DNA of 64,000 nt from a virus, in the IMG/VR virus record IMGVR_UViG_3300037882_003154, positions 57,374 to 121,373 of that record; one strand, written 5' to 3'. Under the pieces are notes generated by a model. The model ran no database searches. It had not been told where the DNA came from and saw only the letters and a program-made list of their open reading frames with translations. Shown here piece after piece: positions 11,383-59,100 of the stretch. A program made the position numbers and the translations under genes. Numbering within the stretch: position 1 is the stretch's first letter; the number at the start of each line of letters is the position of its first letter.

Positions 11383-12408
11383 TTAGCCTGTATATACCGT
11401 GTTCGCTGCTTGATAGAATAATTTGTTCCAAGTTTCTAGATATTGTTCTAGACCACATTTACTTATAACTGTTTCTCTAGCCCTTTTGCCCATTTCATCA
11501 CACAGCTTCGGGCTGTCTAGCAATTGCTTGAGCCTTCTTCGCATTGTACTTTCATCATTGGTTACAAATGCATCATATTCGTCTGTAAAAAATTCTGGAA
11601 TAGCACAAGTTGCTGTGGTTACTATACCAGCCCCACAAGCTGCCGCTTCTAACAATGCACAAGGGATTGGTGAAATTAACGATGTATTAACAAATACTTG
11701 GCAGGCTCTATAGTGATTAACAAGTTCATCTAATGATTTTGCCGCCTCAGAAAGACCGGGAGTAGCCCCCATTGGTTTAACTGGAAGACCTTGGGTTATT
11801 CTCTTCCAAAGATTGAATCCGCAAGGCTGATCCCTATTTATCCAATCATTAACAACAGCCCCAATGGTCTTGATTTTTGGGATGTTTTCGTCTGGGCAAA
11901 ATAGTTCTGTGTCTACAGTATGTGGTATAACTATAGAATTTGATTCGTCCCACCCCCATTGTTTTCTACTCCAGTCTGTGATAAAAACATTTATATCACC
12001 ACTAAATGATCTTAGTTGTTGCCTCATTATTGGAGACCAAGTATCGTATGGGGCTGTGTGTTCAGCTTGTATAATGTTTAAATGATATATTTTTTGTAGC
12101 TGCTTAAAAAACTGATATTGACCAAATCTATTTTCTGACAATATAAGGTCAAAGCCTACATCTTTGGGTATTTGGTCGTTACCAAGATTTCTGTCTAGAA
12201 GTACAAAGTTGGCTGGTAGTGGGGCATACTCAGAATTCCATCCCTTGAAATTTTCTGTTTGTACCAAATAGAAATTGTGACCAGTCTTAGCATATTGACT
12301 CTGAACCCTTTCATGGACCGGACTACAGAGCACATTTAATTTATCCTTAGGTTTTCTAGTAGCCTGCCGTAATACCGATCTCATGCCATTAATTTGCATT
12401 GGTAGCAT
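11383..12408 (-). CDS. Glycosyltransferase family 4 (GT-B)
   Basis: VFVNTSLISPIPCALLEAAACGAGIV (EX7-type motif). Exact start uncertain. Confidence 0.85.
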   Translation of the reverse strand: MLPMQINGMRSVLRQATRKPKDKLNVLCSPVHERVQSQYAKTGHNFYLVQTENFKGWNSEYAPLPANFVLLDRNLGNDQIPKDVGFDLILSENRFGQYQFFKQLQKIYHLNIIQAEHTAPYDTWSPIMRQQLRSFSGDINVFITDWSRKQWGWDESNSIVIPHTVDTELFCPDENIPKIKTIGAVVNDWINRDQPCGFNLWKRITQGLPVKPMGATPGLSEAAKSLDELVNHYRACQVFVNTSLISPIPCALLEAAACGAGIVTTATCAIPEFFTDEYDAFVTNDESTMRRRLKQLLDSPKLCDEMGKRARETVISKCGLEQYLETWNKLFYQAANTVYTG

Positions 12409-13540
12409 CCTCTAATAAGAGATTCTTAATGCGTTCACCAACAACCTTCTTATTAAACTTCTCAAATATATTCTTGACACATCTTTCTGTCTTTTGTTCT
12501 CTTAGCTTTTTGTTCTCAAAAGCCTCTCTCATGGCTCTACGCAAGGCACCAACACTAACCTCATACCAATTTTCATCAGCCCTATACATATCAGGAAGTT
12601 CTACATTTATAGCCCCAAAGCATGGTTCTGAACTACCAGCAACAAGCCAAGCTGTATCGTCATTTAAATAATCCATCATACCACCACATTTACTAGCGAT
12701 AATTGCCTTGCCCATTGCTGCTGATTCAGCACATGGTATGCACCACCCCTCTCCTCTAGAAGCATTAACAAAGCAATCACAGGCATTATACAAAGAATAC
12801 AGGGTTTCATCATCTAATTTATCGGTAACGATGTATTCTCTATGATATCCACCTGCTGATTGATATAGTTTTAAACCATCTTTAACTTGATTACAATAAT
12901 CCGCACATCTTTTTGCAGTTTCTTGCACAGAGACGCCAGGAATATTCACCTTAAATAAGAGCCCCACCCTTTCTTGTGGATGAAACTCAGAATGAAAAGC
13001 CTTAACAATAGCCCCTAGGTTCTTCCTTCTGTTAAATTCGCCCACAAAATAAAACATAAACATACCATCTGCCCCAATTGGTAGTTTATTATATGATCTT
13101 TGAAACTTTTCGGTATCTATGGCATGACCAACATAATACACTGGTTTATGTATTTGTTGATTGTGATGGTGTTTTTCTGTTAGAATCTGGTATTGAAAAC
13201 TGTTAGTAGCCCAAATCTCATCCATTAGATTAAGATGGGTATGCCAATTCGGTCCATGAACACTGTCTGTCTCAGACTCGAACATTGCTATATTTTTCTT
13301 AAAGCCACCATGATATTGCATAAAATGGGGCAAAGTATATTGGATTACTACATCACAATCACTACTATTCCTCTGTTCTAGTTCAAGGATCCTTTCCGGT
13401 AATTTTGATGAAGCATCATTAAACCTAACAGGTCTAATTACCAAATCAATACCAACAGAATCCATAGCCTCTATGTAGGATAAGGCTGCTGATGAATAGC
13501 CGGTTCCATCTCTGTAATTAGATATAAAGAGGACTTTCAT
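12389..13540 (-). CDS. Glycosyltransferase family 4 (GT-B)
   Basis: FNRRKNLGAIV, CFVNASRGEGWCIPCAESAAMGK. Confidence 0.85.
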   Translation of the reverse strand: MKVLFISNYRDGTGYSSAALSYIEAMDSVGIDLVIRPVRFNDASSKLPERILELEQRNSSDCDVVIQYTLPHFMQYHGGFKKNIAMFESETDSVHGPNWHTHLNLMDEIWATNSFQYQILTEKHHHNQQIHKPVYYVGHAIDTEKFQRSYNKLPIGADGMFMFYFVGEFNRRKNLGAIVKAFHSEFHPQERVGLLFKVNIPGVSVQETAKRCADYCNQVKDGLKLYQSAGGYHREYIVTDKLDDETLYSLYNACDCFVNASRGEGWCIPCAESAAMGKAIIASKCGGMMDYLNDDTAWLVAGSSEPCFGAINVELPDMYRADENWYEVSVGALRRAMREAFENKKLREQKTERCVKNIFEKFNKKVVGERIKNLLLEDATNAN

Positions 13541-13541
13541 A

Positions 13542-13748
13542 TTACTCAAAATTAACCGCCCTTGGATCTATCTCTCTGATTACCCTATTATTTCTTTCGT
13601 TTTCAAGCTGTAGTCTAATTATGTCATTCTTTGCTTTCAGATCAAAAATCTGTTTGGACAAAAAAGTAATTAAACATGTCTGTAGTATAAAACACAAAGA
13701 AATAACAATCACTTGGACTTTAAACATCCCACAGTTCACCCCGTTCAT
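13542..13748 (-). CDS. Small membrane-anchored coiled-coil protein
   Basis: Hydrophobic VQVIVISLCFILQTCLITFL followed by heptad-like segment; fills the gap between two GT genes. Confidence 0.5.
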   Translation of the reverse strand: MNGVNCGMFKVQVIVISLCFILQTCLITFLSKQIFDLKAKNDIIRLQLENERNNRVIREIDPRAVNFE

Positions 13749-13764
13749 TATTGGTGTTCGTTGC

Positions 13765-15504
13765 TTATGTTCCACACAAAAACTCCTTATGATTTTCAAT
13801 ATTACTATCTGGTTTAGCATGAGTAATATAATAGGGCTTTTCTCTATTCTCTATACCACATCTTACCTTTTCCCAATTATTGATATTATTTCTCATATCA
13901 AATAACTGTTGCAACATATTATTAAGCTGGAAAGGCTCTGGTGTTGGACGAATTCCCACCATCGAAAAATCATTAATATACATATTGCCGCCATTAACTA
14001 TTTTGCCACCATATGTAAGGCTCTTAACAAGATTAAGCGCAAAATATGTATTGAGCTTTTCTGGCATTCCCAGGACATTCACAATAGCCCAATCAACCAT
14101 CTGAGACATGGATATATTAGATGGATATGTTGTGACAGGATTGTGTAATTTTGGTGGTGATTTCCAGGTTAATCTCCAATCAATGGGCTCCACACTATCA
14201 AAATATGCCATCCATTTTTTCGTTGTCTCTTCCCAATTAAAATGTTTCTCAACACACTTTCTGGTATCAAATCCACGCTTTTTTCTTAATGACTCCGGCA
14301 ATGAGAAAAATTTGATGAGTATATCTACTATTGAATCTGGGTCTGGCTTAGCCCTATGTGTATGTGTTGTTACATCTCTTGATTTAGACAAAAGCTCTAT
14401 TGGATATGCCTTGCATTTATTTATAAAGTCAATAGTACCAGAATAGTTAGTAACAGCCAGTGGTATGCCACACGAAGCCGCTTCTACACAAGGGATGCCA
14501 AACCCCTCTGAAGAAACTGGCTGAACATATAAGTCCATCAAATTATATATAACGCCTAGCTGTTCAGGACTAATGCCATGTTGTGTATTAGGCAACGTGG
14601 CTCCTGGCTGACCACAGTGAGGACAGAACACCCTACTATCAGCCCATAATTCCACAAATATATTGTGGCAATTTCTGCACAAATAGGTAAATAATACCTT
14701 GTGCATTATATTTTCTTCTTGTAGAATTAGTGGTAGGTTCCACCCAAGATCTGGATAAGAAGTATGACAATATAGATAGGTTCTTTGCCCCAAATCTTTA
14801 TTGCTTTTTTCACAATAATCAAGGAATTTTCTAAAAGCCTGAAATAGGTCGGGAAACAGTTTGCGAGCCTGGTTTCGCATCACAGTTCCAACAATATTGA
14901 TATTTTTACCAAACCCAAATTTTGCTTTGAGACCCTGTTTATCAAGTATTGGATTAAAGGTCTTAAAATCACCACCTGGAGGATTGGCTGATAATATTTT
15001 GAGAGACCCGCCGGTTTGGTTTTCTAGTAGACACTTAGCCCATTCAGTATATGTAAAGAGACAGTCCGCCTCCATCATTTGACCTATCCAGTCGGTGGCT
15101 TGTGGCTCACCATCGACGGTTGGCATATAGGCTATTTTATAGAGTGGTCTAAATGGAGAAGAAAACAGATGGGTGCAATACCAAGAATCGCTGATATCAA
15201 ATACTATATCTGGTTTAAAGTCAAGTACAACATCTTCATATCTCCATCCACCAAATTGTGCAAATCCATCTGCATTGTGTTGTGCTATACCGGCTTGGTC
15301 ATTGGGTTCAGGTGCATTAGGATAGACTCGCCAAGGTATAGAATAAGTTCTTTGGTCTGCCAGTGTACAGTATGAGGCGTGTTCCGCAATACAAAATTTA
15401 TTGGTAGCATAGAGCCTATCCAATAGATTTTTGTAATACACAGCATAACCACTAGACAAAAAAGTAGCTTCGCTTCTAGCCAACAGCCTTAATTTTCTAG
15501 TCAC
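13765..15504 (-). CDS. Glycosyltransferase family 4 with internal Zn-ribbon
   Basis: VMRNQARK, EGFGIPCVEAASCGIP; inserted CRNC..(x)..CPHC. Confidence 0.85.
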   Translation of the reverse strand: MTRKLRLLARSEATFLSSGYAVYYKNLLDRLYATNKFCIAEHASYCTLADQRTYSIPWRVYPNAPEPNDQAGIAQHNADGFAQFGGWRYEDVVLDFKPDIVFDISDSWYCTHLFSSPFRPLYKIAYMPTVDGEPQATDWIGQMMEADCLFTYTEWAKCLLENQTGGSLKILSANPPGGDFKTFNPILDKQGLKAKFGFGKNINIVGTVMRNQARKLFPDLFQAFRKFLDYCEKSNKDLGQRTYLYCHTSYPDLGWNLPLILQEENIMHKVLFTYLCRNCHNIFVELWADSRVFCPHCGQPGATLPNTQHGISPEQLGVIYNLMDLYVQPVSSEGFGIPCVEAASCGIPLAVTNYSGTIDFINKCKAYPIELLSKSRDVTTHTHRAKPDPDSIVDILIKFFSLPESLRKKRGFDTRKCVEKHFNWEETTKKWMAYFDSVEPIDWRLTWKSPPKLHNPVTTYPSNISMSQMVDWAIVNVLGMPEKLNTYFALNLVKSLTYGGKIVNGGNMYINDFSMVGIRPTPEPFQLNNMLQQLFDMRNNINNWEKVRCGIENREKPYYITHAKPDSNIENHKEFLCGT

Positions 15505-15976
15505 CAGCCACCCTGTTCCTTTTGATGATATACTTTTTGGCTTTATTATATACAGACTTTACAGTATTTATAGATTTATTTGTGCATTCGGCTATGTCCC
15601 TGAAGGACATATTCATCATCCTGTATAACAATATATTATATTCTTCTGGGGATAGTTTTGGCAAATATTCTGATAAATTTTCTGTCTTTTTATCAAAAAA
15701 AATATTAATATCAGCTATATTAACAAACCCCATCCTATAATGCTTGTTCTTTTTTTGCTCTTTTATGATTTCTTGAAGAATGCAAATCCAAGCGATAGTA
15801 GACAACTCACCCCTAGTTGGATCATGTCTCCTAATTGCCTTTAGGAGCCCAATACAACCAGCCTGGAAGTAGTCATCTACATCGCTTAGACTATTATGCT
15901 TAGCAGTGAACTTTTTTACATGCTTAAAGACCAGACCTAGATTTTCAACTAGGATCTGGTCTTCTTTTTTGTTCAT
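15497..15976 (-). CDS. RNA polymerase sigma-70 family factor (short, regions 2 and 4)
   Basis: ENLGLVFK..DYFQAGCIGLLKAIRRHDP..LSTIA (region 2); MSFRDIAE..SINTVKS (region 4 HTH). Confidence 0.85.
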   Translation of the reverse strand: MNKKEDQILVENLGLVFKHVKKFTAKHNSLSDVDDYFQAGCIGLLKAIRRHDPTRGELSTIAWICILQEIIKEQKKNKHYRMGFVNIADINIFFDKKTENLSEYLPKLSPEEYNILLYRMMNMSFRDIAECTNKSINTVKSVYNKAKKYIIKRNRVAGD

Positions 15977-15993
15977 GCAGCAACCCCGTTCGC

Positions 15994-16392
15994 TTAAAAT
16001 GGTGAGTCTTCTTCGGCACTGCTATTATCACTACCCACCGTGTCTTCACTATCAGGCTTGGGAACACCACCTTTTCCATCATTGATAAAGGTAAAGTCGT
16101 TGACCTTAAATTTAAGCTTGCTTCTTTTGCTGCCATCCTTTGCAACCCAGTTGTCCTGAACCACGGCAGCCATAACAGATAGTTGCCTGCCCTTGACACA
16201 ATACTTGGCGATTAATTCTGCTCGTGGTCCCCAAGCATCCATATCAAGGAAGATGGTCTCTTTTTCACCACTCTTGTTTTTAAACCCACTATGAATAGCC
16301 AACCCGAAGCTACAAACTGGCGTCTTTAGTTCACCAACATATTTAAGTTCTGGGTCTCTTGTTAAATTACCTACGAAAACACAATTGTTCAT
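15994..16392 (-). CDS. ssb: Single-stranded DNA-binding protein
   Basis: NNCVFVGNLTRDPELKY OB-fold; acidic C-terminus EEDSPF. Confidence 0.95.
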   Translation of the reverse strand: MNNCVFVGNLTRDPELKYVGELKTPVCSFGLAIHSGFKNKSGEKETIFLDMDAWGPRAELIAKYCVKGRQLSVMAAVVQDNWVAKDGSKRSKLKFKVNDFTFINDGKGGVPKPDSEDTVGSDNSSAEEDSPF

Positions 16393-16417
16393 GTTAATTA
16401 CTCTTTTTTGTGGTTAG

Positions 16418-17014
16418 TTACTTCATTATTTCAATAAAACGCTTTGGATCTGATAGAACTTGTTTTATCCTATCATATCCCTCTACGACATTTAACTTTT
16501 GGGCTAATTTATCTGTGCTCTCATTTAGACCATTTTTAGATACCTCCAGTAATACATTTTGAAGTGACGCTTGTTTGGTGTTGTTCGATTTGTCTAATTC
16601 AAGCTGACAAAAATCTAGTATAGATTGGGCTCCACTAGATATTGTTAGTAAATCACCGCGTGTCGATATAAGTTTAACTAAGTGAAAACTGTATTTTACC
16701 AGTAGTATTAAGGATGCCATGTTGATATATAAGAAGTATCCACATGCATATATTGGAATATCATGGTGAGATTTTCTAGATATATCATTATTATAAGTGG
16801 TCTCTTGTACTATCGAACACATGTTGTCTTGGAATAATAGTGTGTTTACCACACATATCTTGTTGGTTAGATGTGGTACAAATAGTGTTATGTGTTCATA
16901 TTTGCTCTTTTTAGTTCTGGTATTTGTTTCTTCGTTTAGACTATACAGCTTAATGATACTACATGTGTAGTCATTGTCTTCTAATATCTTAATAATCTCA
17001 GATTTAAATTTCAT
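16418..17014 (-). CDS. Hypothetical protein coupled to the dnaE C-terminal gene
   Basis: 198-aa ORF; TAATG overlap with the dnaE-C stop. Confidence 0.6.
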   Translation of the reverse strand: MKFKSEIIKILEDNDYTCSIIKLYSLNEETNTRTKKSKYEHITLFVPHLTNKICVVNTLLFQDNMCSIVQETTYNNDISRKSHHDIPIYACGYFLYINMASLILLVKYSFHLVKLISTRGDLLTISSGAQSILDFCQLELDKSNNTKQASLQNVLLEVSKNGLNESTDKLAQKLNVVEGYDRIKQVLSDPKRFIEIMK

Positions 17015-19644
17015 TATATCTGTATAACTTCCATTATGGTGAGTTTATTATTAAAATTAGTTCTATTTCCAACCACAATTACCGAATTGTTTTCTACTAG
17101 TAGATCACCATATTGGGCTATTTTATCCCCAAACATTGTAGCCCCATCAACCATACCAGTCTCATCAAAAAAATTAATAAACAACATTTTTTGTCCGGTA
17201 TTTTTGCCAGCCCTTATTTCATATTCTGACACCCTGGATATCTGACAGGCTATAGCAATTTGTTGTGTTCCTATGCCATTATTATAGTCTGCACAGGTTG
17301 AATTGGCAATAGAAATATCTTTTGAGTTTAGTTCCGACACCGAAACCGCTATTCCCAAAAGTTTTTCTTCATCGTTTGCCATAGAAACAATTGTGTCTTC
17401 CATAGAATAGGGTGGGCTCTCTAGGGACTTTATTATATCATTGACAATAACTTGTCTATTTTTATTTTTGGATTTAGTATTATGCAATGCATCCAAGAGC
17501 CCCTGGTACTTATCACAATTAGTAATAATACTGGTCTGTTCGCCATTACTTAGTTCTTGCCATTTTGAATATTCATAACACATTAGGGTCCTGGTCATAT
17601 TAAATGGAAGAGATCCACACTTAATCATATTCTCTATGCCAGTCTTATTAACATTTGTCGCTACTAAGCACAGGAACTCCAACCAAGACAGTTGTGTTAT
17701 GTTTTTGCCAGTATTTGATATGGCTTCTCGTAATTTTGATATAACAGAATCACCGACACCCCTAATATCTCTAAGCCCAAACCTTATACACCCATTATGT
17801 ATATGGAAGTCAGATTCCATAGTTATGATAGATGGTGGTAATACCTTTATACTAAATCTTTTACAGTCGTCTATGAGCTCTTTTTTCTCTTTTTTGGGAT
17901 CGAGTCTTTCTTTGGCATATTTTAGATAAGTTTTAAAGAATTCCAGTGGATAGTTAGCTTTATAATATGCTGTGTAGTATCCTATATGGGCGTACGCCAC
18001 ACTGTGCGACAGGTTAAACGAGTATCTTTGGCTTCTCTTTATATTATCCCATATTGCCCTGGCACTATCATCATCAACAACGCCATGACTCTTGCACTTA
18101 TCTATAAAAGTTGTCTCGATTTCCGCCATAAGTTTTGGGAGCTTCTTGCCAATACTGTTGTGTATGACCATCCCATTGGCGATAATCCAGTGTATTTGTT
18201 CTCTTGGTCTGCTTCTATCTAAATTGTCTACTGTAAAATCATAGACATTTTGTTTACCAAACTTTGGTCTGATTTCTTTGACAGCGCCGTGGTCGATATC
18301 TCTTTGTTTTTTGGTATTTGATAATAGATCGCCTATATTAGATATCATTTCCTCTGACATATATTGAGATAAAATAGGATCCTTGCTTATCTTGTATATA
18401 GATGCCACATCATCGAATATCATCCTATATTGCTGGCTTTCTTTGGCTTTTTTACACACAATTTTTGTGTATATATTCTGTATGCTCAAAAGGAGCTGCA
18501 TTTGTTTTGCTAATTTTTTGGACTTAAAGATAATATATACACTATTTTTTATTGCATGTCTTTGTAAACCACAAGATAATATAAACCCCAGAGCCCTATT
18601 AATGGTGGCGATATCAGCCCCAAGAATAAATCTGGGTAGATATTTTTTCGTAGCCGACTTTGCACAGTCTTGCAAGAGTGGTGCTAGCCTTTGTCTTTCT
18701 GCATATCCTATCCTTAGCTGATTTTTGTTATAGAATGTGGGCTTTTTCCCAAAGACCCTCAGATACAAGTCTGAGTATTCACTTAGTATGTGTTCACTAC
18801 AGTGTGAAAAAAAGCTCTTGTCTTTCGCCCCTTTACCAAAATAATAACCAGAATATACTATCGCCCCCACTAATGTGTATAGATCTTGGGTCTTTTCTGT
18901 ATCGGTCAATGCTGTATTATATATATGGGTTTGATCACCACCCTCAATAATATTCTGTATGTTTAATATTGAATTATACAAAGAGTCTTTAGACTTTATG
19001 AATCCACCCTTTGTTATTGAGTAAATTTTATGATTATGTGTACAGGCGATTGACATTCCATTATTTAATACTATCTCGTGTACTTCTTTTTTATCACTTA
19101 GCCATATATCATATATTTGTACCCAGACGAACTCTTTCATATTAGGGTGTATTGATAGAAACGAATCATTCTTATATTCAGCTTCTAAGATCTCTTTTAT
19201 TGTGATCCACCCCCTAGTCTTAGACAAAAACATAGTGTCGTCAGTAACGCATTTTCTAAGAGTCTCTGATTCAGCAAGAGTGAACCCGGCTATATCCCTG
19301 GATATTTGAATAGCCTGTTCCTGAAAAACCAAAATGCCCTGTGTCTTTTTCAAGATGGGCTCTAGTGCGGGGTGCACATATTCTACCGGTTTTTCTCCAT
19401 TTTTTCTCATACAATACACATCTGTAAGAGACTTATTATCTAACTTAGACTCTAAGCAGCCGGGTCTTATAATAGATATAATATCAGACAGTTCTTCGAT
19501 AGATCTTGGTTTGGCTTTTTTACAATACCTAGATCCCAACCAATTTTCTAGCTGAAAAACACCTTTGGTATGTCCCTCACATATCATATCCCATGTTTTT
19601 GTGTCATCTAGTGGGACCGACATTAGTTTTTCGGTACTATTCAT
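17014..19644 (-). CDS. dnaE: DNA polymerase III alpha, C-terminal half (fingers, HhH, OB-fold), intein-containing
   Basis: PLDD..TW..GVFQLE, IRPGCLE, GILVFQEQAIQI, YSFNLSHSVAYA, IRFGLRDIRGVG, final OB-fold. Start moved to MNSTEK. Confidence 0.9.
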   Translation of the reverse strand: MNSTEKLMSVPLDDTKTWDMICEGHTKGVFQLENWLGSRYCKKAKPRSIEELSDIISIIRPGCLESKLDNKSLTDVYCMRKNGEKPVEYVHPALEPILKKTQGILVFQEQAIQISRDIAGFTLAESETLRKCVTDDTMFLSKTRGWITIKEILEAEYKNDSFLSIHPNMKEFVWVQIYDIWLSDKKEVHEIVLNNGMSIACTHNHKIYSITKGGFIKSKDSLYNSILNIQNIIEGGDQTHIYNTALTDTEKTQDLYTLVGAIVYSGYYFGKGAKDKSFFSHCSEHILSEYSDLYLRVFGKKPTFYNKNQLRIGYAERQRLAPLLQDCAKSATKKYLPRFILGADIATINRALGFILSCGLQRHAIKNSVYIIFKSKKLAKQMQLLLSIQNIYTKIVCKKAKESQQYRMIFDDVASIYKISKDPILSQYMSEEMISNIGDLLSNTKKQRDIDHGAVKEIRPKFGKQNVYDFTVDNLDRSRPREQIHWIIANGMVIHNSIGKKLPKLMAEIETTFIDKCKSHGVVDDDSARAIWDNIKRSQRYSFNLSHSVAYAHIGYYTAYYKANYPLEFFKTYLKYAKERLDPKKEKKELIDDCKRFSIKVLPPSIITMESDFHIHNGCIRFGLRDIRGVGDSVISKLREAISNTGKNITQLSWLEFLCLVATNVNKTGIENMIKCGSLPFNMTRTLMCYEYSKWQELSNGEQTSIITNCDKYQGLLDALHNTKSKNKNRQVIVNDIIKSLESPPYSMEDTIVSMANDEEKLLGIAVSVSELNSKDISIANSTCADYNNGIGTQQIAIACQISRVSEYEIRAGKNTGQKMLFINFFDETGMVDGATMFGDKIAQYGDLLVENNSVIVVGNRTNFNNKLTIMEVIQI
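18157..19251 (-). mobile_element. Cis-intein (365 aa) with degenerate LAGLIDADG-like core in dnaE-C
   Basis: Begins C(VTDDT) after ETLRK, block B ACTHNHKIY, ends VIHN followed by Ser (SIGKK). Excision restores the conserved LRK/SIGKK motif. Confidence 0.9.
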
Positions 19645-19651
19645 TGTATTA

Positions 19652-20323
19652 TTATGATACAAGTGTGTCTGGGGTTTCTTCGTCATTACCAAAAGCCCCC
19701 GCAAATTTAGCAGCCTTGGATTTTTTTCTTTGCCACTCTAAAAATCTAACAGCAATGGCTTTGGTATCTAGCACATCTTGTAGCGCTTCGTGTGCTTTGC
19801 CGCCCGCATCTATACCAAAAAACTTTCTTAGATAATCTAGGTTGTATCTGTAGGGTTCTTTGAGGCTCTCAAATGAAAACCACATCATTTGCATTGTATC
19901 TATGTGATATGGGCTGAATAGTGTTGGTCTATTAGTTTTATCTACCGGACCAAACTCTAAGCAAAGTCTATCAAAAATGATCTTGTCAAACCCTATGATA
20001 TTATGACCACATAGTATGGGACGGTCCCAAGTAGATTTGCCTTTAGAGAATTTATCTACAAATTTTACAAAATCAGACCACACTTCGGATATAGACGGGG
20101 CTTTTTCTAGCTGTTCTATGGTCTTTTTATTAACATCTAGGGCTTGCTGCTCTACTGTGGCAAAGTCGGTTGGTCTGATAAGAGAATAGAATCTAGATTC
20201 TTTTTCTTCTTGTAGAGTTCTGCTGTCTAATACTATGGCGGCAAGCTCTACTGGCTGACATGTGTAGGGGTTTGCTGATGATGTTTCAAAATCAGCCACT
20301 AATATTTTGTTAAAATTAATCAT
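19652..20323 (-). CDS. DEDDh 3'-5' exonuclease (DnaQ-like)
   Basis: ADFETS (ExoI), GHNIIGFD (ExoII), HEALQD (ExoIII). Confidence 0.9.
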   Translation of the reverse strand: MINFNKILVADFETSSANPYTCQPVELAAIVLDSRTLQEEKESRFYSLIRPTDFATVEQQALDVNKKTIEQLEKAPSISEVWSDFVKFVDKFSKGKSTWDRPILCGHNIIGFDKIIFDRLCLEFGPVDKTNRPTLFSPYHIDTMQMMWFSFESLKEPYRYNLDYLRKFFGIDAGGKAHEALQDVLDTKAIAVRFLEWQRKKSKAAKFAGAFGNDEETPDTLVS

Positions 20324-20751
20324 TACAATTTTTCCTCTATAATATCGGCTATTTCCTGGAACGATTTGCCTTCGTCATTTAACATTGATAGTGTTATATG
20401 TCCATCTGCACCACCACCTATGATGATATCAAGTCCACCAAATACTTTAGTTCCAGACACACCTGATTGTTTAAATAGTGTGTCCTTAGATATACCAGCC
20501 CACTGAACCACAGATTCTGGCAAAAACTCATCTTTGCCATCAAAATAACACACTGTGTCAGCTAATTGGTCTGTGTAAAGTGATATGTGCGATTCTTCTA
20601 CAAATTTTTCACAGACACCTTCTTTAGCAGCCCTATCAGCCAGTACACCTAAGCAGCAATATCTGTTGTTCTTGGTCAGAGCGCCTTCACACTGTTGATA
20701 CTTGCCACTTCTAAGATCTTCCAACCACCATGATTTAACTTGTGGATTCAT
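20323..20751 (-). CDS. Conserved phage hypothetical protein (paralog of 63383..63766)
   Basis: W..LRSGKY.Q..L..YCCLGVL..LPESV..WAG..LND..F..IA..IE. Confidence 0.7.
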   Translation of the reverse strand: MNPQVKSWWLEDLRSGKYQQCEGALTKNNRYCCLGVLADRAAKEGVCEKFVEESHISLYTDQLADTVCYFDGKDEFLPESVVQWAGISKDTLFKQSGVSGTKVFGGLDIIIGGGADGHITLSMLNDEGKSFQEIADIIEEKL

Positions 20752-21094
20752 TTTCTAATGCCAACCTTTCTTTTTCCAAATTTCTGTTAATAGCTAGACT
20801 GGTATCGAATTTTTCTGGGTATCTAGCCCTTAGTTTGTCAATATTCCTTCGTTGCACTTCTTCAAACGAAACATTCATGGCATCGCACAAAATGGCTAAA
20901 TACCAGAATATATCACCGGCTTCTTCGATCAGATTGTGCCAATCAAGAGGTTTGTTATAAAACATTTCCCTCTTTTTAGCATCTAATAGTTCACCAGCCT
21001 CTGTTGCTAAACCAAGAGCAGCATGTAATATCCTGTCGGGATTTAATGTTGATTCGGTTCTTGTAGCTAATTTTATATATTCTTGATTGTTCAT
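20735..21094 (-). CDS. MazG-like nucleotide pyrophosphohydrolase
   Basis: LGLATEAGELLD..EEAGDIFWYLAILC..NIDKLRARYP. Confidence 0.9.
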   Translation of the reverse strand: MNNQEYIKLATRTESTLNPDRILHAALGLATEAGELLDAKKREMFYNKPLDWHNLIEEAGDIFWYLAILCDAMNVSFEEVQRRNIDKLRARYPEKFDTSLAINRNLEKERLALENESTS

Positions 21095-21972
21095 TTTGCC
21101 CCATTCATTTTAATATAACTGAATATGTGTGCTATTACATCAACACTCCAGCCATTGCCAATCGCTATCCTTCGTTGAGCATCCGAGATAATGGACGTAT
21201 AGTTATCTGGTAGTTGTTGTAACCTTTCTAGTTCTATACAGTTCAAATTGCCTATCTTGCCATTATCAAATAATAGCTTGATTTTCCCACTGCAATTAGA
21301 TAGTATTGTGCGAAACTTACCATCTAAAAGACAATATCTTTGGTCTTCCCAATAGTTATTCCCACAACCATCCTTTTTTGTATATTCATAATATAGCGGC
21401 TTTTTTTTTGTTGATGCTATAACATCCGTGTCTAGCCATTTTCTTTTATCACTTCTGTCGTCGGTTATTATATCTCTGACCACTATATTTTTGTCTTTTG
21501 GTTGTTCAATCCCAGAAACATTGGTCCAATATAATCTTCTTCTGTGTTGTGCCGATACTAAAGCAGAGTTTATTTCTATTGGCTGTACACCCATGTAGTC
21601 CGATATTATATCAGACCACTCTTTTTTCATAACAACATTTTCTAACAGAAAATATCTTGGCGATATCTCTTGTAGAAGACGAATATATTCAAAAAATAAT
21701 TTACCGCTAGTACCATCCATACCCTGTTTTTTACCACTACTACTGAATGATACACAGGGGCTTCCACCAATTAATAGGTCTGTCTTGGGCAAATTAACAG
21801 CAGAAATAGCCGATATATCACCAAGCTGTATCGTGTGTGGGAAATGATATTGGGTTACTTTTATAGCATGTTTATTAATTTCTGATGCATAATAATTATC
21901 ATATCTTATATTAGCTCTGTGCAATGCAAGTTGACCACAACTAATACCATCAAATAAAGATAGAACATTCAT
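21091..21972 (-). CDS. DNA (cytosine-5) methyltransferase
   Basis: LSLFDGISCG (motif I), GGSPC (IV), LLENV (VI), QHRRRLYW (VIII), IGNGW (X). Confidence 0.9.
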   Translation of the reverse strand: MNVLSLFDGISCGQLALHRANIRYDNYYASEINKHAIKVTQYHFPHTIQLGDISAISAVNLPKTDLLIGGSPCVSFSSSGKKQGMDGTSGKLFFEYIRLLQEISPRYFLLENVVMKKEWSDIISDYMGVQPIEINSALVSAQHRRRLYWTNVSGIEQPKDKNIVVRDIITDDRSDKRKWLDTDVIASTKKKPLYYEYTKKDGCGNNYWEDQRYCLLDGKFRTILSNCSGKIKLLFDNGKIGNLNCIELERLQQLPDNYTSIISDAQRRIAIGNGWSVDVIAHIFSYIKMNGAK

Positions 21973-23879
21973 GGCGATACATTTCTTTGTATTTCAGCTA
22001 ACTTAGATAATGCCGAAAGCCCAAGGCAATCTAATTTAAGAATTCCAAGACTTTCTGCATCTCTCATGTCTATGTATATTATTTGTCTATCACTGCTCTT
22101 ATCATGCCCCATCGGAACTATATCTACTAATGGGACCGGAGAAACAAATAGGGCTGATGCATGTTTAGACATAGCCTTAATTGTCCCCTCAAGTCTTATT
22201 GCCTGTTTGAAATATCTAGCATATTTACCAACTATAGCACCACCCTCATCTATAGAGCACCACTCTGATAGCTCCTTTTGGTTATTTTGCAATGACCATA
22301 GAATTATACTGGGATCTTCACCATCTTCTTTCATCTCCTGTAGTTCGTCGGCAATGGCTGCTTCATCGGGAATGTGTTCGGTAATTTTATTCATTTCTTC
22401 AAAGCCACAAATGTCGTGGGCTCTTAATACATCTTTAAGAGCCCCTCTGCCTTTGAACTTTGAAAACGTACATATTTGTGCTACTTGTTCTATTCCATAT
22501 TTATGTTCTATGTACTCTATTACTTTGTGACGATCATCTATTGGGAAGTCTGAATCAATGTCTGGCAGGTCTATTTTCTTCTTGTCAAGTCTTGCAGGAT
22601 TAATGAATCTTTCAAAGATTAAGCCATATTTTATTGGGTCTATCTCAGTAATGTTCATTAAGTAGCACATCAAAGAGCCAGCACAGCTACCACGAGAAGG
22701 TCCCACAAGTATGCCATGATTTTTAGCCCAGTTGATATAATCTTGAACAATCAAAAAGTAATCAGACAAACCATAAGGAGATATTACCCCAATTTCGTAT
22801 TTAATTCTGTCTACATACTTTTGCTGTTCTTCTTGAGCAATGCATCCAATGATTTTTTTTCTCCATCCATCTCTGCATAAGTGTGTTAAATATTCATTGG
22901 AATCCTTGTGTTCTTTTGGTATGCCAAATTTTGGTAAGAAAGGAGTATTACTTAATGAGTATGTCTCACACTTTTCTGCTATTTCTAATGTATGAGATAT
23001 CTCTTCAAGAGTATTATTGGCTAACATCTCTTGTGGTGATGGGATATGATAATTGTTAGATTTAAAAAACCCACTAAGTCCAAATTCTTCATCATTATCC
23101 AGAGCCCTCTGTATCTTCTTAAAATTGGTCTTTAACATCGTACATAACAAAACCCTTTGATCTTGAGCATCTTCTTGTCTACAATAGTGGGCATCTGCTG
23201 TAGATACACAAGGTATATTGTTTTTTTTGCCAATTTTTCTGAGACAGTCGGCTATTACATTTTGAACAGGAAGATTTTCCCTGTCTATTAACTGTATTTC
23301 TAAGTAAAAATTTTCTTTACCAAATATTTCTATGTGTTTTTGGGCTAGTTCCAGGGCTTTGTCATACCAATCGGGGACAAGTAATTGTTCGGCTTCTTTG
23401 GTGGTATTAGCCCTATAAGACAGTTTTGGATCTGCAAATAATATATTAGCCATTTGTGACCCAGGATGACCACTGAAACACAATAGATTGCCCATAAATC
23501 CACTAAATTGTTCTAGCTGTAATCTGGGCTTATAGTAAAAGTTTTCCTTTAGATTAGAAAATGAAACAGCCTTAATAAGACTTTGCCAGCCCATCTTATT
23601 CTTAGCAAGAACGACCAAGTGTGCTAGCTGTCTATTTTTTTGGGTCTTAATAGATGGGTGATCATTAGACAGATAAAATTCACACCCTAATATGGGTTTT
23701 TTATTGGCTTCTAAGAACAGTTTATTAAAAGCAAATGCCTCTGATACAGTACCATGATCTGTAATGGCACATCCCGGCAAACCAATTTCAGTTATCCTAT
23801 TTAGGATGTCCTTAGGCTTGCTAACACCATCTAGTACAGATGCGTGGCTGTGGGTATGAAGACTAAAATAAGTGCTCAT
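21969..23879 (-). CDS. dnaE: DNA polymerase III alpha, N-terminal half (PHP + catalytic palm/thumb)
   Basis: HTHSHASVLDG, ITDHG, TADAHY (PHP); GPSRGSCAGSL, FERF, PDIDSDF, SKHASA, KLDCLGL, then a stop codon. Confidence 0.92.
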   Translation of the reverse strand: MSTYFSLHTHSHASVLDGVSKPKDILNRITEIGLPGCAITDHGTVSEAFAFNKLFLEANKKPILGCEFYLSNDHPSIKTQKNRQLAHLVVLAKNKMGWQSLIKAVSFSNLKENFYYKPRLQLEQFSGFMGNLLCFSGHPGSQMANILFADPKLSYRANTTKEAEQLLVPDWYDKALELAQKHIEIFGKENFYLEIQLIDRENLPVQNVIADCLRKIGKKNNIPCVSTADAHYCRQEDAQDQRVLLCTMLKTNFKKIQRALDNDEEFGLSGFFKSNNYHIPSPQEMLANNTLEEISHTLEIAEKCETYSLSNTPFLPKFGIPKEHKDSNEYLTHLCRDGWRKKIIGCIAQEEQQKYVDRIKYEIGVISPYGLSDYFLIVQDYINWAKNHGILVGPSRGSCAGSLMCYLMNITEIDPIKYGLIFERFINPARLDKKKIDLPDIDSDFPIDDRHKVIEYIEHKYGIEQVAQICTFSKFKGRGALKDVLRAHDICGFEEMNKITEHIPDEAAIADELQEMKEDGEDPSIILWSLQNNQKELSEWCSIDEGGAIVGKYARYFKQAIRLEGTIKAMSKHASALFVSPVPLVDIVPMGHDKSSDRQIIYIDMRDAESLGILKLDCLGLSALSKLAEIQRNVSP

Positions 23880-24880
23880 TGACTAACCCTACCGCCACCA
23901 TCAGAATATTCGGCAATTTTAAATCCAGCCTGTGTGTGATTTTTCATCACGGTATCAATGCCATATAATTGTATTTCATCTTTGAAGAAATCACAATAAG
24001 ACTTGTCTTTTGTATATGGCTTGGAATATTGACAGAAGTTTTTACATTTCCATGTCAAATTAACATGGGGCTTTTCTACATTCCTTATAGCCAATATTCT
24101 ATTCTTAATCAGCTCTTCACATCTTGGTATATCTCTTTTAGTAAATGGCAGAGTATAAACACCACCATGATTAGAAAAAAATATGCTCACAATTATATGT
24201 TTATATTGTGGAAACACTTTACATGCAGCCCAATAATACATCATTAGTTGTGGATCTGAACACAATTCATTAAATCCCTTAACTTTTGGTATTATTGGCG
24301 AAAAGTCTTGGGGCTTGCCGGTTTTTAGATCTACTAATTCTATTGTGTCTTTGTTAAGAATGGATATGTGATCTAGGGTTCCCTTGACAGCAAAATTGCC
24401 CTTAATCACTCCATTTGGAGATCCCTGTTGATACTCAGCCCACTTTTCCTTTATCTCTATATCAAACTTGAATTCGGGCTCTAGTATATTCCTTAATAAT
24501 GGATTGAACATTCCACTTTTATATTCTAATAACTTATATGCCCATGTACAACACTGCTTTTTGTCTTTTTCTGTTAATGTAATATGTGGGGTGTTTTCTT
24601 TATAGAAATTAAATGCCAGTTCATTTATAGCCTCTATATTACTGGGATCAAAATCTTGGGTTACAAAAGATCCCAGGGAATCATCAACAAATGTTTTGGC
24701 TTTGTCTTGTGTAGCTTTTTTATATCTGGCTAATATTTCATAAAATTTATGTACCACATTTCCTTTTGCTGCTGCCACCCCAGCCAAAGACTTAAACCCC
24801 AGAACATAAGTAAGGAAATACCTGTGTTGACAAAATGAAAAGTCATTATATGAAGAAGATCTTAGGTATGTAATGAGCAA
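23876..24880 (-). CDS. PD-(D/E)XK nuclease, Cas4/AddB-like
   Basis: SSSY..F..C, GTLDH..LVDLKTG, QLMMY, C-terminal CKNFC..C. Confidence 0.8.
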   Translation of the reverse strand: MLITYLRSSSYNDFSFCQHRYFLTYVLGFKSLAGVAAAKGNVVHKFYEILARYKKATQDKAKTFVDDSLGSFVTQDFDPSNIEAINELAFNFYKENTPHITLTEKDKKQCCTWAYKLLEYKSGMFNPLLRNILEPEFKFDIEIKEKWAEYQQGSPNGVIKGNFAVKGTLDHISILNKDTIELVDLKTGKPQDFSPIIPKVKGFNELCSDPQLMMYYWAACKVFPQYKHIIVSIFFSNHGGVYTLPFTKRDIPRCEELIKNRILAIRNVEKPHVNLTWKCKNFCQYSKPYTKDKSYCDFFKDEIQLYGIDTVMKNHTQAGFKIAEYSDGGGRVSQ

Positions 24881-24919
24881 TGGTGGTGTTCCTGGGATTT
24901 GAGGAGTGGACGCCCAATA

Positions 24920-25693
24920 TTAGTTTTCAATAAAATTATAGTTGATGTATCCCCAGTCTATTAGTTTCTTATGTAGCACAGCATGGCAGCCTTCTAGTGA
25001 TATATCTTGGTTTTCTAAAATGAAATCAAAATTAGCCCAATCATATTTATCGGCATCTAATGCCACTTCGGATGCATCTGTGTCTTCTTCTACTTTTCTG
25101 GTAAGCCTAATAACTTTGCCACCAGCGGTCTGAATAGCCTTTACTTCATTGGGAAATCTAACATCGGCAATTACAGCCAATCTTGATTCTTCTTTCTCAA
25201 TTTTTGTTAATGTATTTTCTATCCATATATCATTATGAAAAGCCCTCATAACATCAGTGCCAACAAACTGCATAACCTGACGGGCAGTCATATATTCGCC
25301 TTCACGAATATGACCTGGTGGATATTTATACTTAGTTATAGAATTCTTATCATCATTGTCGCCATATACCTGTTTCCATTCTAGCCCCAAAACCCCCATA
25401 CACAAATCCTTTTTTAATGAATCAGCGAACGAATAGGGCTTAATATGCTGGAACACATTGGTTTCTAACCAGTCATTGAGCCCTATATCATTAGACTGGA
25501 ATTCCAGAAACATGTTTGTGGTTTCACCATTCTCTTCTTTTTTATCGGTATTTACAATCAATCTTCCATCATTGCTTATGTGGAAATATCTAATTATACC
25601 AATGTGCAACATTTCAGAACCACAAAGAAAATTACTAGCAGATGTTTTCCCAGCTTGTTTTTTTCCCGATATTCCTAAAATTTTTGTAAGCAT
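24920..25693 (-). CDS. Deoxynucleoside monophosphate kinase
   Basis: GISGKKQAGKT P-loop, SFADSLK, ARQVMQFVGTD, IADVRFPNE. Confidence 0.88.
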   Translation of the reverse strand: MLTKILGISGKKQAGKTSASNFLCGSEMLHIGIIRYFHISNDGRLIVNTDKKEENGETTNMFLEFQSNDIGLNDWLETNVFQHIKPYSFADSLKKDLCMGVLGLEWKQVYGDNDDKNSITKYKYPPGHIREGEYMTARQVMQFVGTDVMRAFHNDIWIENTLTKIEKEESRLAVIADVRFPNEVKAIQTAGGKVIRLTRKVEEDTDASEVALDADKYDWANFDFILENQDISLEGCHAVLHKKLIDWGYINYNFIEN

Positions 25694-52347: not shown

Positions 52348-53514
52348 TTAAAAGAGTGAAGAAATAAGTTGGTCGGCTGTGTTTTCCCAAGAAAACCTTT
52401 TAGATGTTTCAAGGGCTCTTTGAGAGATTGTTTGATTGACTGACTTGCTGATGTCTGAATGAATGTGTTTCATACAGGTGATAATATCATTTTTTTGTTT
52501 TGGACCGATATGAGCCCAATTGCCCTGATTAAAGAAAAACTTTCCATCATAGGCTGGTTCAACCTCATCTATATCAATAAGATAGCAGTTTTCTTCTGTA
52601 CAAAATTCTGTGTGACCACTATAATTAGTAGCTATTACTAATTTGCCCATAGCCATAGCTTCCAAACATGGTAAATCCCATCCCTCAGCCTTACTAATAG
52701 ATAATACACAATCTACCTGTGACATTACCTGGGCTATTTCTACTTGGGTTTGGAATCTAGGTAATATTTTGATTTTTGAGCCCAGTTCAGAATTTTTGTA
52801 AAGTGATAACCACTCTTGCATTTCTTCTTGTGTTACGAAAAAAGAGTGTGGTGTAAGCCAGAGTTCAACGGAATCATTCTCGTTAAACGCATCTGCGAAT
52901 ATCTCATGTATTATATCGTGAGACTTGCGAATTTCGAGCTTGCCCGGCAAATAAAATACTGTTTTTACATTTGGGTCTCTAAAATTTGTGCTAGGCTCTG
53001 GTCGAATATTTTCATTGAAGATATCACGATCAACACCAAGTGGTATTATGTGATAGTTATTTACATCAATTTCTTTACAGTTGTTCAATACATCGGCAGC
53101 CCACCGACTACAAACAAATATTTGGTGGAGCCCATTTAAACTGTTAATTTCATGTGGTGCAAACTTATCTAGTTCAAATATAGGAAACCCCACTCTCCTA
53201 CCATACCCTACAGATTCATGTAGTAAGTGCTGATGAAATATTCTTAGTGTTGGAGCCCTACGATCATAGTTACATTTGTTCTGTATGGTTGGTACTAGAT
53301 ATTGTTCAACCAATTGATTTATATAGTTGGGATCTTTGGATATATGTGACATATGCCATTCTATTGTCCTTTGTTTATCGTTGATGTTTGGTATATCTAT
53401 TGGAAATAGTGACACATTAACACCATTATCTACTAATGCCCTAAGAATATTCCATCCGACAAGCCCATAGGACAATGGGTTTATTGGAGCCATTAAATTT
53501 AGATTCAGGTTCAT
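52348..53514 (-). CDS. Glycosyltransferase family 4 (outside the main island)
   Basis: GKLEIRKSHD, SKAEGWDLPCLEAMAMGK; similar to 12389..13540. Confidence 0.85.
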   Translation of the reverse strand: MNLNLNLMAPINPLSYGLVGWNILRALVDNGVNVSLFPIDIPNINDKQRTIEWHMSHISKDPNYINQLVEQYLVPTIQNKCNYDRRAPTLRIFHQHLLHESVGYGRRVGFPIFELDKFAPHEINSLNGLHQIFVCSRWAADVLNNCKEIDVNNYHIIPLGVDRDIFNENIRPEPSTNFRDPNVKTVFYLPGKLEIRKSHDIIHEIFADAFNENDSVELWLTPHSFFVTQEEMQEWLSLYKNSELGSKIKILPRFQTQVEIAQVMSQVDCVLSISKAEGWDLPCLEAMAMGKLVIATNYSGHTEFCTEENCYLIDIDEVEPAYDGKFFFNQGNWAHIGPKQKNDIITCMKHIHSDISKSVNQTISQRALETSKRFSWENTADQLISSLF

Positions 53515-56176: not shown

Positions 56177-59100
56177 ATGGCAGTAAAATTTTTCAAATCA
56201 GACCAAACCTTGGATACTGCGGCTAATGCTGTAATTACCACATCATTTTCCGATAAATCTACCCTAAGCTGGTCTTTTTTCTTAAAATCACTACAAGACG
56301 TGAGCGGGTCTACTAGTAATTTTCTTGGTGGTCAATTCTCTCGATTTTTCTTTATGAATCGACCAGTAACAACCTCACCAAATGTAAGGTTTACTGTTGT
56401 TACATCCGGTAGTAATACAAATAGTAGTAGTTTTTATGTTAGCACTGGGGTTTGGACCCATTTTGCTGCAACCCAAACACCAGGAGCCCAATACTTTTAT
56501 GTAAATGGGCAGTTATTAAATTCAGGAAGCAATCCCAATAAAATGGCGTTTGTTTCTGCTAGTACCGCTATTGGATTTAATAGACAGAGCGCTAGTAGTG
56601 GTCATATGATATTTGATGATTTCTCTATATTTTCGGGTATAGTGTTGTCGCAATCACAGGTTAAATCATTAAGAAACAGAACAATTTTGCCAACAGACGT
56701 GTCTTTGTCTGGCAATTTAATGTATTACTACACATTTGATAATCCAACCGGTGGCGTTATAGTTGCCGGAGCCCCCGGATTAACCAATGGTGGGTTCTTG
56801 GGATCTAATGCAGATCTTACTGCCGTGAGTGGTCAACCAGAATGGGTACAAGAGACCGGTGTGTTTGTGTTCAATCTTCAGCCAAGAAGTATTGAAACAG
56901 GGAAAAGCGGCAAAACTATTATAATGACATTTCAGGATATGAATGGAAATACCCAAGACATTAATAATGCAGATCCAACCCAAAGACCCACAATATCAAT
57001 CAATGGCGGTGGTAATATTACGTTACATAGTGGAATATTGCCGGGCGGTGGAGGAACCGTAGACCTTGTAGGTGGAGATGGCTATTATATTGTATATCCT
57101 GTCACGGGCGTAGTAATACAATCTAGTGATGTAGTCAAATTGAGTACAGCAGACGAAGGATATTGGTCACGCATTGATGGTCTTGGTGGTACAGACATTG
57201 TTGTTTCGGGCTCTGTAAATAATTATGTTGGAATGGAATTGTATAATTATGCTGGATTTAGTCCCACAGGATTAAAGATTGGTCTCAATTCTAATTTTTC
57301 TCTATATTACGAAGAGCCCCTATTCCTAGCTGATATTAGCAGGGGTGGATTTAGTGCATTAACAAAAACATCAAGACCTAGAAATATATCATCAACAAGC
57401 GACGACGCTCTTGTATTTCATACAATGGATAATGACTATTGGGGCAGAAGACCCCATATGCCTAGTGGCAATGCCACAATTACATATTATGGCAGTGGAA
57501 CATTTGATACTGCAACAATTACCTCTACCGGAAGCCCCAATTTTGCTGTTAGAAATATAAATCCGACAGGCTCAACCAATATATTCTTTAATACAGTGTC
57601 ACTTCCTATTAGTGGTGTTGAGATATATCCAAGTGGGCACTATGGTCAAATATTTAATCCAAGACTGATACAAATATTAAGAGACACCAAGTGCGCCGTA
57701 TATCGTACTATGAATGCCAACCAGATTAATTCTAGTAGAATTGCTAGTTTTTCTGAGTGGGGAGACTCAGCAGACCAGACACTGGGGTTTGGTTTTAGAA
57801 CACAGGTACCATTACTAAACATTACTTCCTTTGTTAATGTTAGCAGCCTATTGCAAGCCAATAGAATTTTCATGCACATATTCACTTCAGGTGATCATGG
57901 TCTAGTTAATGGTCAAGTAATATCAATGACAGGGGCTCTGACTATAGCTATAACAGGATCGGCTACCACAACCACAACATTTCCGACCACTCTGACACCG
58001 GTGGTTATGGTGACAAGCCCCAGTAGTTTATTAATTCAAAGATTTAAGTCAGATGGCGGTCATGTGTCTGGGGTACAATTTTTCAATAATACAGTATATT
58101 GTCAAAGAGAAAATATATATAGACCATCGTTATTTGCCAAATTGGTTAATGAAGTTCCTGGCTGTGATTTAATGTACTGTATGCCACACGCAATGGATGA
58201 AAGTGGCATGTCTCTGACAATGCATGAACTTTGCCAAAATATTAATACTGATAAAAAGATATATCTTGAGCTCAGTAATGAGACATGGAATCCTGGTGAC
58301 GCTTTCCAACAATATGGATATTTCTATAATGAGGGTCATTTAAATCCAATGTTTGTTACTCCATCTGCTTATGGCGTGACAGTAAATACTACATATATAC
58401 CATTAACAAGCGGTGTAACAGCGACAGGTCAAACCAGAGTTAATCTAGCATATGCCGAAAAAGCTGGAAGACTGCATACAATAGCCAGTGGTGTTATGGC
58501 ACAATATGGTTTGGCACATAATCTAGTAAGAGTGTTTGGCGGCAGAAACAATATCATTGAGGACGGAGAAAGGGTCCTAGAGTGGGCGAGGGCTAGAGGA
58601 TATCAGATAGATGCTATCGCAACAGCCCCATATTATGACAATAGAACCGACGATTTATATGCAAACAACTTCATAGGGCTGGACTCAGAACAGGTCCAAG
58701 ATACCCTATATGCAGCCCTTAAATTTGCGGGTAATAGGCATCAACAGATAGTGAATTATAGAAATCTGGCTAGGACTTTTGGGGCTCGTAATATCTGCTA
58801 TGAGGGTGGTACTGCTGGATTAGCTGTTGGTAGCTCAACTATAGTTAGTGGGATTTTTACCCTAACAGATGTTGTATCTATTAAAGCTGGCAGACACCCT
58901 AGGCTGGCTGATAGCTATTTTTATATGCTTAAGCACTTAGCTGAAAATGGCTATGATCTATTTTGTCATTATAATATAGGTCATTCACTGGCTACTGAAC
59001 CAGATAATCATTGGGGCATGTTCCAATATTATACACAGCCAATAGGAAGGGGCGATGGTAGTGATGGACTAAGAGATAGTAGAATAGATCTACAAGATAT

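Follow-up and report, generated by a model that had tools for sequence, protein, structure and literature searches.

The alpha subunit of DNA polymerase III (Pol III alpha, DnaE), as seen in the structures from Taq (2HPI/3E0D), E. coli (2HNH/5FKU) and M. tuberculosis (5LEW), is a single chain that bears the PHP, palm, thumb, fingers, HhH and OB domains and a triad of catalytic Asp residues, while in PolC of Bacillota, also a single chain, a DEDDh exonuclease domain is inserted in the PHP domain. Here, we analyze a 64,000-nt stretch of viral DNA (hereafter the window; positions 57,374 to 121,373 of the 133,464-bp IMG/VR virus record IMGVR_UViG_3300037882_003154, whose completeness is estimated at 85%), in which the same domains and the same Asp triad are encoded in a colinear order, but by two genes and in two polypeptides, with the cut about 19 residues past the third Asp and with an exonuclease gene and three further genes in between. 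A DEDDh exonuclease is thus found amid a C-family polymerase as it is in PolC, but here it is a separate gene lying between the palm and fingers coding regions. The phage is uncultured, has a record of 133 kb, and possesses hundreds of aquatic relatives with a likewise two-piece Pol III alpha.

Replicative polymerases made from two genes have been described before. In cyanobacteria, dnaE-n and dnaE-c lie at separate loci, the cut falls at the FNKSH motif of the fingers, and the halves are ligated by a split intein (Ssp/Npu; PMC2677866). The phage locus shares with this system the origin of a replicative Pol III alpha from two genes but differs in three respects: its break comes after the palm, its genes form part of a single module, and the break is not flanked by intein parts. 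In the same passages, Dassa et al. (2009; PMC2677866) reported DnaE genes from ocean metagenomes "fractured" by split inteins and a free-standing endonuclease gene; this is probably the same kind of marine phage DnaE, and the C-half of one locus related to ours (L002, see below) shows that layout. Nevertheless, the palm/fingers break considered here has neither a split intein nor a homing endonuclease, and the DnaE passages of that paper are silent on it. In group 2.2 jumbo phages, a minimal Pol III alpha core was proposed to come from two distantly encoded stand-alone proteins, beside a PolB (Iyer et al., 2021; PMC7824862). This is again a phage C-family catalytic module thought to be rebuilt from two proteins, but it comprises the catalytic core only and is cut between the NTP-binding and the Mg/template-binding subdomains, whereas in our case the enzyme is full length with PHP, HhH and OB, the whole palm is in one piece, the genes lie 2.3 kb apart and there is no PolB. 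Finally, the reassembly without ligation of an essential enzyme split by inserted DNA has been shown at the bench for gp43A/gp43B (Aeromonas phages 25 and 44RR) and for NrdA of Aeh1: the split gp43A/43B of phage 25 co-purify and polymerize, and the split NrdA is active (PMC2988022). Only a few phages carry those splits, which are tied to homing endonucleases or an untranslated spacer, and gp43 belongs to another polymerase family, whereas the phage DnaE split characterizes a very large clade, with a gene for a proofreading-type exonuclease inserted. Our literature search gave no published description of a full-length DnaE cut after the palm with an exonuclease gene in the cut; the sole natural two-gene full-length Pol III alpha that was found described is the form rejoined by a split intein.

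We consider it likely that the two polymerase genes of the window, which lie on its minus strand within 17014-23879, give a replicase from two separately translated proteins that would assemble non-covalently. Their parts are as follows:

21969..23879, minus strand: DnaE N-half, 636 residues, with PHP, palm, thumb and a 19-residue tail helix (Pfam PHP, DNA_pol3_alpha)
17014..19644, minus strand: DnaE C-half precursor, 876 residues, with fingers, HhH and OB and an intein; mature form of 511 residues (Pfam)
19252..19644, minus strand: C-half extein 1, residues 1-131, ending in ...AESETLRK (alignment A2 and Taq alignment)
18157..19251, minus strand: intein of 365 residues, residues 132-496 (Pfam Intein_splicing)
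17014..18156, minus strand: C-half extein 2, residues 497-876 (SIGKK..., the remaining fingers, HhH, OB and the stop codon)

Pfam assigned residues 7-196 of the N-half to PHP (E 1e-33) and residues 329-620 to DNA_pol3_alpha (E 2e-72). The motifs PDIDSDF and KLDCLGL are both present, and across an alignment of 26 N-half relatives the catalytic residues D440, D442 and D617 are unchanged, as are the metal-site-like PHP positions H8, H10, D17, H42, E67, H87, D229 and H231; the GS motif region is also invariant in these 26 N-halves. The N-half thus comprises a PHP domain whose metal site looks intact, a palm with all three catalytic Asp, a thumb and one further helix. In the C-half, DNA_pol3_finger (E 1e-37) and HHH_6 (E 7e-10) both scored over the cut-off, and the OB domain gave a weak match (18.1 bits vs. 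a cut-off of 27). The fingers motifs LRK/GKK, YxFNxSH and others are invariant in the 32 C-halves of alignment A2, which comprises the window and 31 intein-free relatives.

When aligned with Taq Pol III alpha, the N-half covers residues 8-635, its residue 634 corresponding to Taq 635, and the C-half covers residues 648-768 and 766-946, its residue 10 (counted from the ATG at 19644) corresponding to Taq 648. The break is thus located in a linker of about 10 residues directly after the palm, and the N-half ends 19 residues past D617. The two halves do not form one reading frame: there is a stop codon at 21969-21971, a fresh ATG at 19644, and four genes between. The start of the C-half at this ATG (MNSTEK...) agrees with the alignment of the 31 relatives. 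A TTG at 19704 was considered as an alternative start and rejected, as the C-half and exonuclease genes would then share 53 nt, and as the ATG at 19644 is the start that agrees with the C-halves of the relatives and with the unsplit linker. In unsplit relatives (P0158, P0167, P0179, P0262, P0268, P0141 and P0191), about 30 residues separate the third Asp from the D-x-x-x-W of the fingers, and the 19-residue tail and the 13-residue head in the window occupy the same space. Without the intein, the halves total 1147 residues vs. 1102-1151 in the unsplit relatives. Being colinear with the latter, they have no residues over for split-intein parts; Pfam found no Hint/intein match at either junction, where an N-intein end and a C-intein start are both absent.

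An earlier note on this DNA, made from its letters alone, had described two stand-alone Pol III alpha genes, an N-half with PHP and all three catalytic Asp, a C-half with fingers, HhH and OB, a break in the variable linker between DFLGL and PLDD of E. coli DnaE, and junctions devoid of split-intein blocks. The open reading frames (ORFs), the Pfam matches, the invariant residues and the Taq alignment bear out this description, with two amendments: the N-half indeed ends shortly past the third Asp, but after 19 rather than about 15 residues, and the picture of the C-half was incomplete, as the complete intein at residues 132-496 had been left unmentioned. The note had also allowed for a pseudogenized half; both halves proved intact, with their key residues conserved.

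The intein is delimited in alignment A2, where L129-R130-K131 and G499-K500-K501 are invariant and residues 132-496 of the window are inserted between them; all 31 aligned relatives lack the insert and have Ala at the +1 position, where the window has Ser. The insert bears the signatures Cys1 (CVTDD...), block B ACTHNH (THNH), a C-terminal ...VIHN and Ser +1. Intein_splicing matched at 37-38 bits vs. a cut-off of 35.8 (residues 166-516 of the ORF 17014..19704), and the first 120 residues of the intein weakly matched the solved DnaE intein 7qil (E 0.03). Its site in the LRK/xIGKK motif of the fingers corresponds to Taq R767/A768 in LRRAMGKK, a motif that we take to line the incoming-nucleotide site in the Taq and E. 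coli structures. To judge from the reading frame, the C-half is made as an 876-residue precursor that must splice in cis to a 511-residue protein; the intact signature residues suggest that the intein would excise itself, joining LRK to SIGKK and restoring the conserved fingers motif. Since LAGLIDADG_3 matched only marginally (E 0.12), with motif-like stretches that by eye lack the acidic residue, the homing endonuclease domain of the intein is probably decayed. No homologue of this intein was found in any of 222 related loci (for their choice, see below).

Inteins occur in related polymerases as well. Protein P0134 shows Intein_splicing and LAGLIDADG_3 within the catalytic domain, and several N-half relatives of about 1000 residues bear large inteins, thus indicating that both polymerase halves are frequent intein hosts. 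At the related locus L002 (9968-17304; N-half 43% identical), DnaE is in three pieces: the same intein-free break is found after the palm, and the C-half is also cut, between ...RYSFNA and CLSPE... and between ...ATSN and SHAYAY, by a split intein (14334-17304) whose parts enclose a 311-residue endonuclease-like ORF. This matches the "fractured gene" layout as given in the DnaE passages of Dassa et al. (2009; PMC2677866). In the window, no split-intein halves around an endonuclease ORF were found.

To model the complex, the sequences of the window itself were used, with N-half residues 300-636 as a partner of the two C-half exteins and with three controls. The halves were placed together with an interaction prediction score from aligned errors (ipSAE) of 0.84 vs. 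0.39 for the best of the three controls; in the calibration, the ipSAE mark was passed by 58 of 80 solved complexes and by 2 of 110 mismatched pairs. Between runs, at least 91% of the contacts are the same, and the predicted local distance difference test (pLDDT) value of the partner is at least 82. In the model, the tail helix of the N-half (residues 621-635) packs on helices 544-579 of the C-half, whose own first residues rest on residues 386-401 of the palm. This suggests that one helix belonging structurally to the fingers is retained by the N-half and inserts into the C-half, and that the mature C-half, with fingers, HhH and OB, may dock on the N-half without a covalent bond.

The same arrangement is widespread. 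In IMG/VR, 581 stretches encode relatives; the best 80 loci (L-numbered) were examined, and the addition of 142 further related loci brought the set to 222. The order N-half, exonuclease, C-half on one strand was found in all 210 loci that hold both halves, namely 68/68 among the best 80 and 142/142 among those added (where certain contigs were fetched twice), and the break position is the same in every split locus; thus, the breakpoint that the earlier note had suggested looking for in related phages recurs throughout, and the complex prediction that it had also proposed placed the halves together. None of these loci, neither the 68 nor the 142, shows a fusion to a neighbour. A word-indexed search yielded more than 120 clusters of N-half-only proteins (586-692 residues, 47-54% identical), which contain PHP and the catalytic domain alone and lie on Tara, ENA, JGI and Logan contigs, the longest of 222 kb. 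When 50%-identity representatives were searched exhaustively and the best 151 (P-numbered) considered, 140 stopped at most 45 residues from where the match to the N-half ends, the remainder being 7 unsplit proteins, 1 protein with a cpYpsA domain and 3 fragments. In the cpYpsA protein (P0231), this circularly permuted SLOG domain is fused to the C-terminus of the N-half in place of the usual end.

The genes that accompany the two halves are listed below:

23876..24880, minus strand: PD-(D/E)XK nuclease (Pfam PDDEXK_1, E 8e-15), a conserved upstream neighbour whose stop overlaps the start of the N-half
21091..21972, minus strand: C5 cytosine DNA methyltransferase (Pfam DNA_methylase, E 7e-38)
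20735..21094, minus strand: MazG-type nucleotide pyrophosphohydrolase (Pfam MazG, E 7e-10)
20323..20751, minus strand: DUF8296 / phrog_18067 phage protein of 142 residues, function unassigned (PHROGs E 5e-20; Atlas clusters DUF8296 score 0.96)
19652..20323, minus strand: DnaQ-like DEDDh 3'-5' exonuclease (Pfam RNase_T, E 7e-19; DFET, HNIIGFD and HEALQD motifs)

According to the ORF coordinates, eight minus-strand genes, the last being the one that comes after the C-half, follow one another from 24880 to 16418 with overlapping or abutting stops and starts and with spacers of no more than 7 nt, the largest being the 7 nt from the exonuclease stop (TAA, 19652-19654) to the C-half ATG at 19644. 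Given that the genes are co-oriented and their stops and starts overlap or nearly abut, they are probably cotranscribed and translationally coupled; no terminator-like site was found on the minus strand between the halves. The PD-(D/E)XK gene lies upstream on the same strand in 78 of the 80 related loci. Genes for a DnaB-type helicase, a primase and a ribonucleotide reductase are found near the polymerase module, and three glycosyltransferase-like genes (phrog_2170) also lie near the replication module (window 12389-15504 and 52348-53514).

Among the four genes of the gap, the exonuclease stands apart. The earlier note had named these genes correctly as a C5 methyltransferase, MazG, a hypothetical protein (DUF8296) and a DEDDh exonuclease, but it had called all of them unrelated to the polymerase, which is wrong for the exonuclease, present in every related two-half locus. 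In the relatives, the C-half follows the N-half stop at a median of 934 nt, which leaves room for an exonuclease gene and little else, vs. 2.3 kb in the window. The exonuclease gene is, moreover, the sole RNase_T gene in the record. It is a conserved part of the module, and its product is probably a third subunit and most likely the proofreader. The other three genes are later, lineage-specific insertions made in this phage, since neither the C5 methyltransferase nor the DUF8296 gene has a homologue in the 222 related loci and MazG was matched in one locus only (L026), where it lies upstream of the N-half. The gap tolerates insertions: the interval between N-half and exonuclease exceeds 400 nt in 13 of the 68 loci, and about 6 kb of large ORFs, seen as translations, lie there in L005 (11917-18066), which marks it as a recurrent insertion site. 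The note's inference of a two-subunit non-covalent replicase, unlike the trans-spliced cyanobacterial DnaE, is thus supported but has to be amended for the conserved exonuclease, the three local insertions and the cis-spliced intein.

Two families of small ORFs were also seen in the gap between N-half and exonuclease in related loci, one of 58-67 residues with an ...ERVSCC..LNA... core in 32 loci (e.g., L012:4917-5093) and one of 72-78 residues in 9 loci (e.g., L010:11898-12134); neither was matched in the window (tblastn, E <= 1e-3). About 40 of 50 intact related C-halves open with an extension of 30-45 residues bearing a conserved x-C-G-C-x-F ... C-x-x-T-W pattern (e.g., L012:5779-5900, L020:12774-12900), possibly a zinc knuckle. 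The extension is missing from the window and from L010, L011, L016, L036, L058, L069, L070 and L080.

Several other explanations of the broken polymerase have to be weighed. The halves might be covalently rejoined after translation by an unrecognized split intein or another protein ligase, as inteins are common in the gene family (the C-half of the window, the split intein of L002, the N-halves of relatives) and atypical split inteins with very short N-parts exist. However, the N-half ends 16 residues past the Pfam palm and the start of the C-half falls at position 18 of the finger profile, the 19 + 13 residues in between are fully matched by the linker of unsplit relatives with no Hint match at either junction, and the tails after the catalytic Asp vary both in length (15-43 residues, median 23) and in sequence in related N-halves, with no conserved nucleophile at the junction; we regard such a ligation as very unlikely. 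Group I introns interrupt phage genes, and ribosomal bypass occurs in T4 gene 60, but it is exceedingly unlikely that an intron, trans-splicing or bypass joins the two frames at the RNA level into one polypeptide here, where the 2.3 kb between the halves consist of four intact, packed genes on the same strand, one of them conserved in every relative, and where the N-half ends in a genuine stop and the ATG of the C-half aligns with the starts of its relatives. An Rfam scan of 16000-25000 on both strands by E-value threshold gave no match at E <= 1 and no Rfam intron.

It also appears unlikely that the halves are a decaying remnant or have a partial function (PHP/palm alone as a nuclease or nucleotidyltransferase) while the host Pol III replicates the phage. 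What speaks for it is that no gene for a beta clamp (DNA_pol3_beta) or a clamp loader was found in the 133-kb record, but hundreds of loci that have drifted apart to 40-50% identity keep both halves intact and the residues of the active site and the dNTP-binding motif invariant, and the phage itself encodes a DnaB-type helicase, a primase and a ribonucleotide reductase next to the module. Furthermore, the persistence of the intein in the C-half argues that the protein is needed, as splicing must restore it. The Pol III alpha type is the only recognizable DNA polymerase of the phage: the 133-kb record showed a single finger domain and neither PolA nor PolB. An artefact of assembly or gene calling might be suspected, as the record is one metagenomic contig, yet the same break with a gene between the halves was met in over 200 loci, assembled independently from many samples, and in proteins of several independent origins, and we give this explanation practically no credence.

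Most probably, then, the two halves act as separately translated proteins that assemble without ligation, but certain points weigh against this reading. The good score of the complex model may merely reflect its likeness to the solved single-chain DnaE structures, and the model was a three-chain job, unlike the calibration. The phage and its relatives are uncultured, and the GenBank phage collection contains no close relative, the top match being 34% identical. With a record about 85% complete, another polymerase might conceivably lie in the part that it lacks. As no beta-clamp gene was found in the record, the enzyme would either rely on the clamp of the host or be of low processivity. Lastly, the splicing competence of the intein is judged from its motifs, and its endonuclease domain looks degenerate.

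The history of the split was followed in trees of the N-half region (FastTree with 142 rows, IQ-TREE with 44 rows). Unsplit L003, L079 and P0262 branch first, followed by a clade with all the split forms (97-98% support); L003 and L079 are distant (29-35% identity), have a single continuous DnaE ORF and show no exonuclease match nearby. In both trees, however, two unsplit trios, P0158/P0167/P0191 and P0141/P0179/P0268, nest with strong support inside the split clade. The approximately unbiased (AU) test rejected the split forms as one clade (log-likelihood 89 lower, p-AU 0.0013), although the group was named after the tree had been seen, which weakens the test. In the N-half, the closest unsplit relatives show 40-47% identity. 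Searches for related loci gave nothing for unsplit P0158 and only split loci for unsplit P0179 and P0167. The simplest reading of these trees is a single split, made when the exonuclease gene arrived, and at least one later re-fusion; alternatively, independent splits may have occurred at the same site. The nesting of unsplit forms suggests that evolution can reverse the split.

More tentatively, and with rather less confidence than we place in the two-piece replicase itself, the N-half, the DEDDh exonuclease and the C-half may form an obligate three-piece core, in which the cut after the palm would let a proofreader be built in. Such an enzyme would be PolC-like by gene insertion, not by domain fusion, and evolutionarily reversible, given that unsplit forms nest inside the split clade. 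In most relatives, the core would add a micro-protein of about 60 residues and a Cys-rich knuckle on the C-half.

Pol III alpha is the textbook single-chain replicase, and yet a very large set of uncultured aquatic phages, represented by hundreds of viral contigs of up to about 240 kb, appears to replicate with a version of it that is cut between palm and fingers and has the proofreader gene in the cut. This creates an annotation problem, as the halves are labelled "DNA polymerase III subunit alpha" or left unnamed. If confirmed, the two-piece enzyme would mean that C-family polymerases can bear a permanent break at the palm/fingers junction, and it would provide a natural system for studying how a replicase is assembled from pieces and how a proofreader is recruited.

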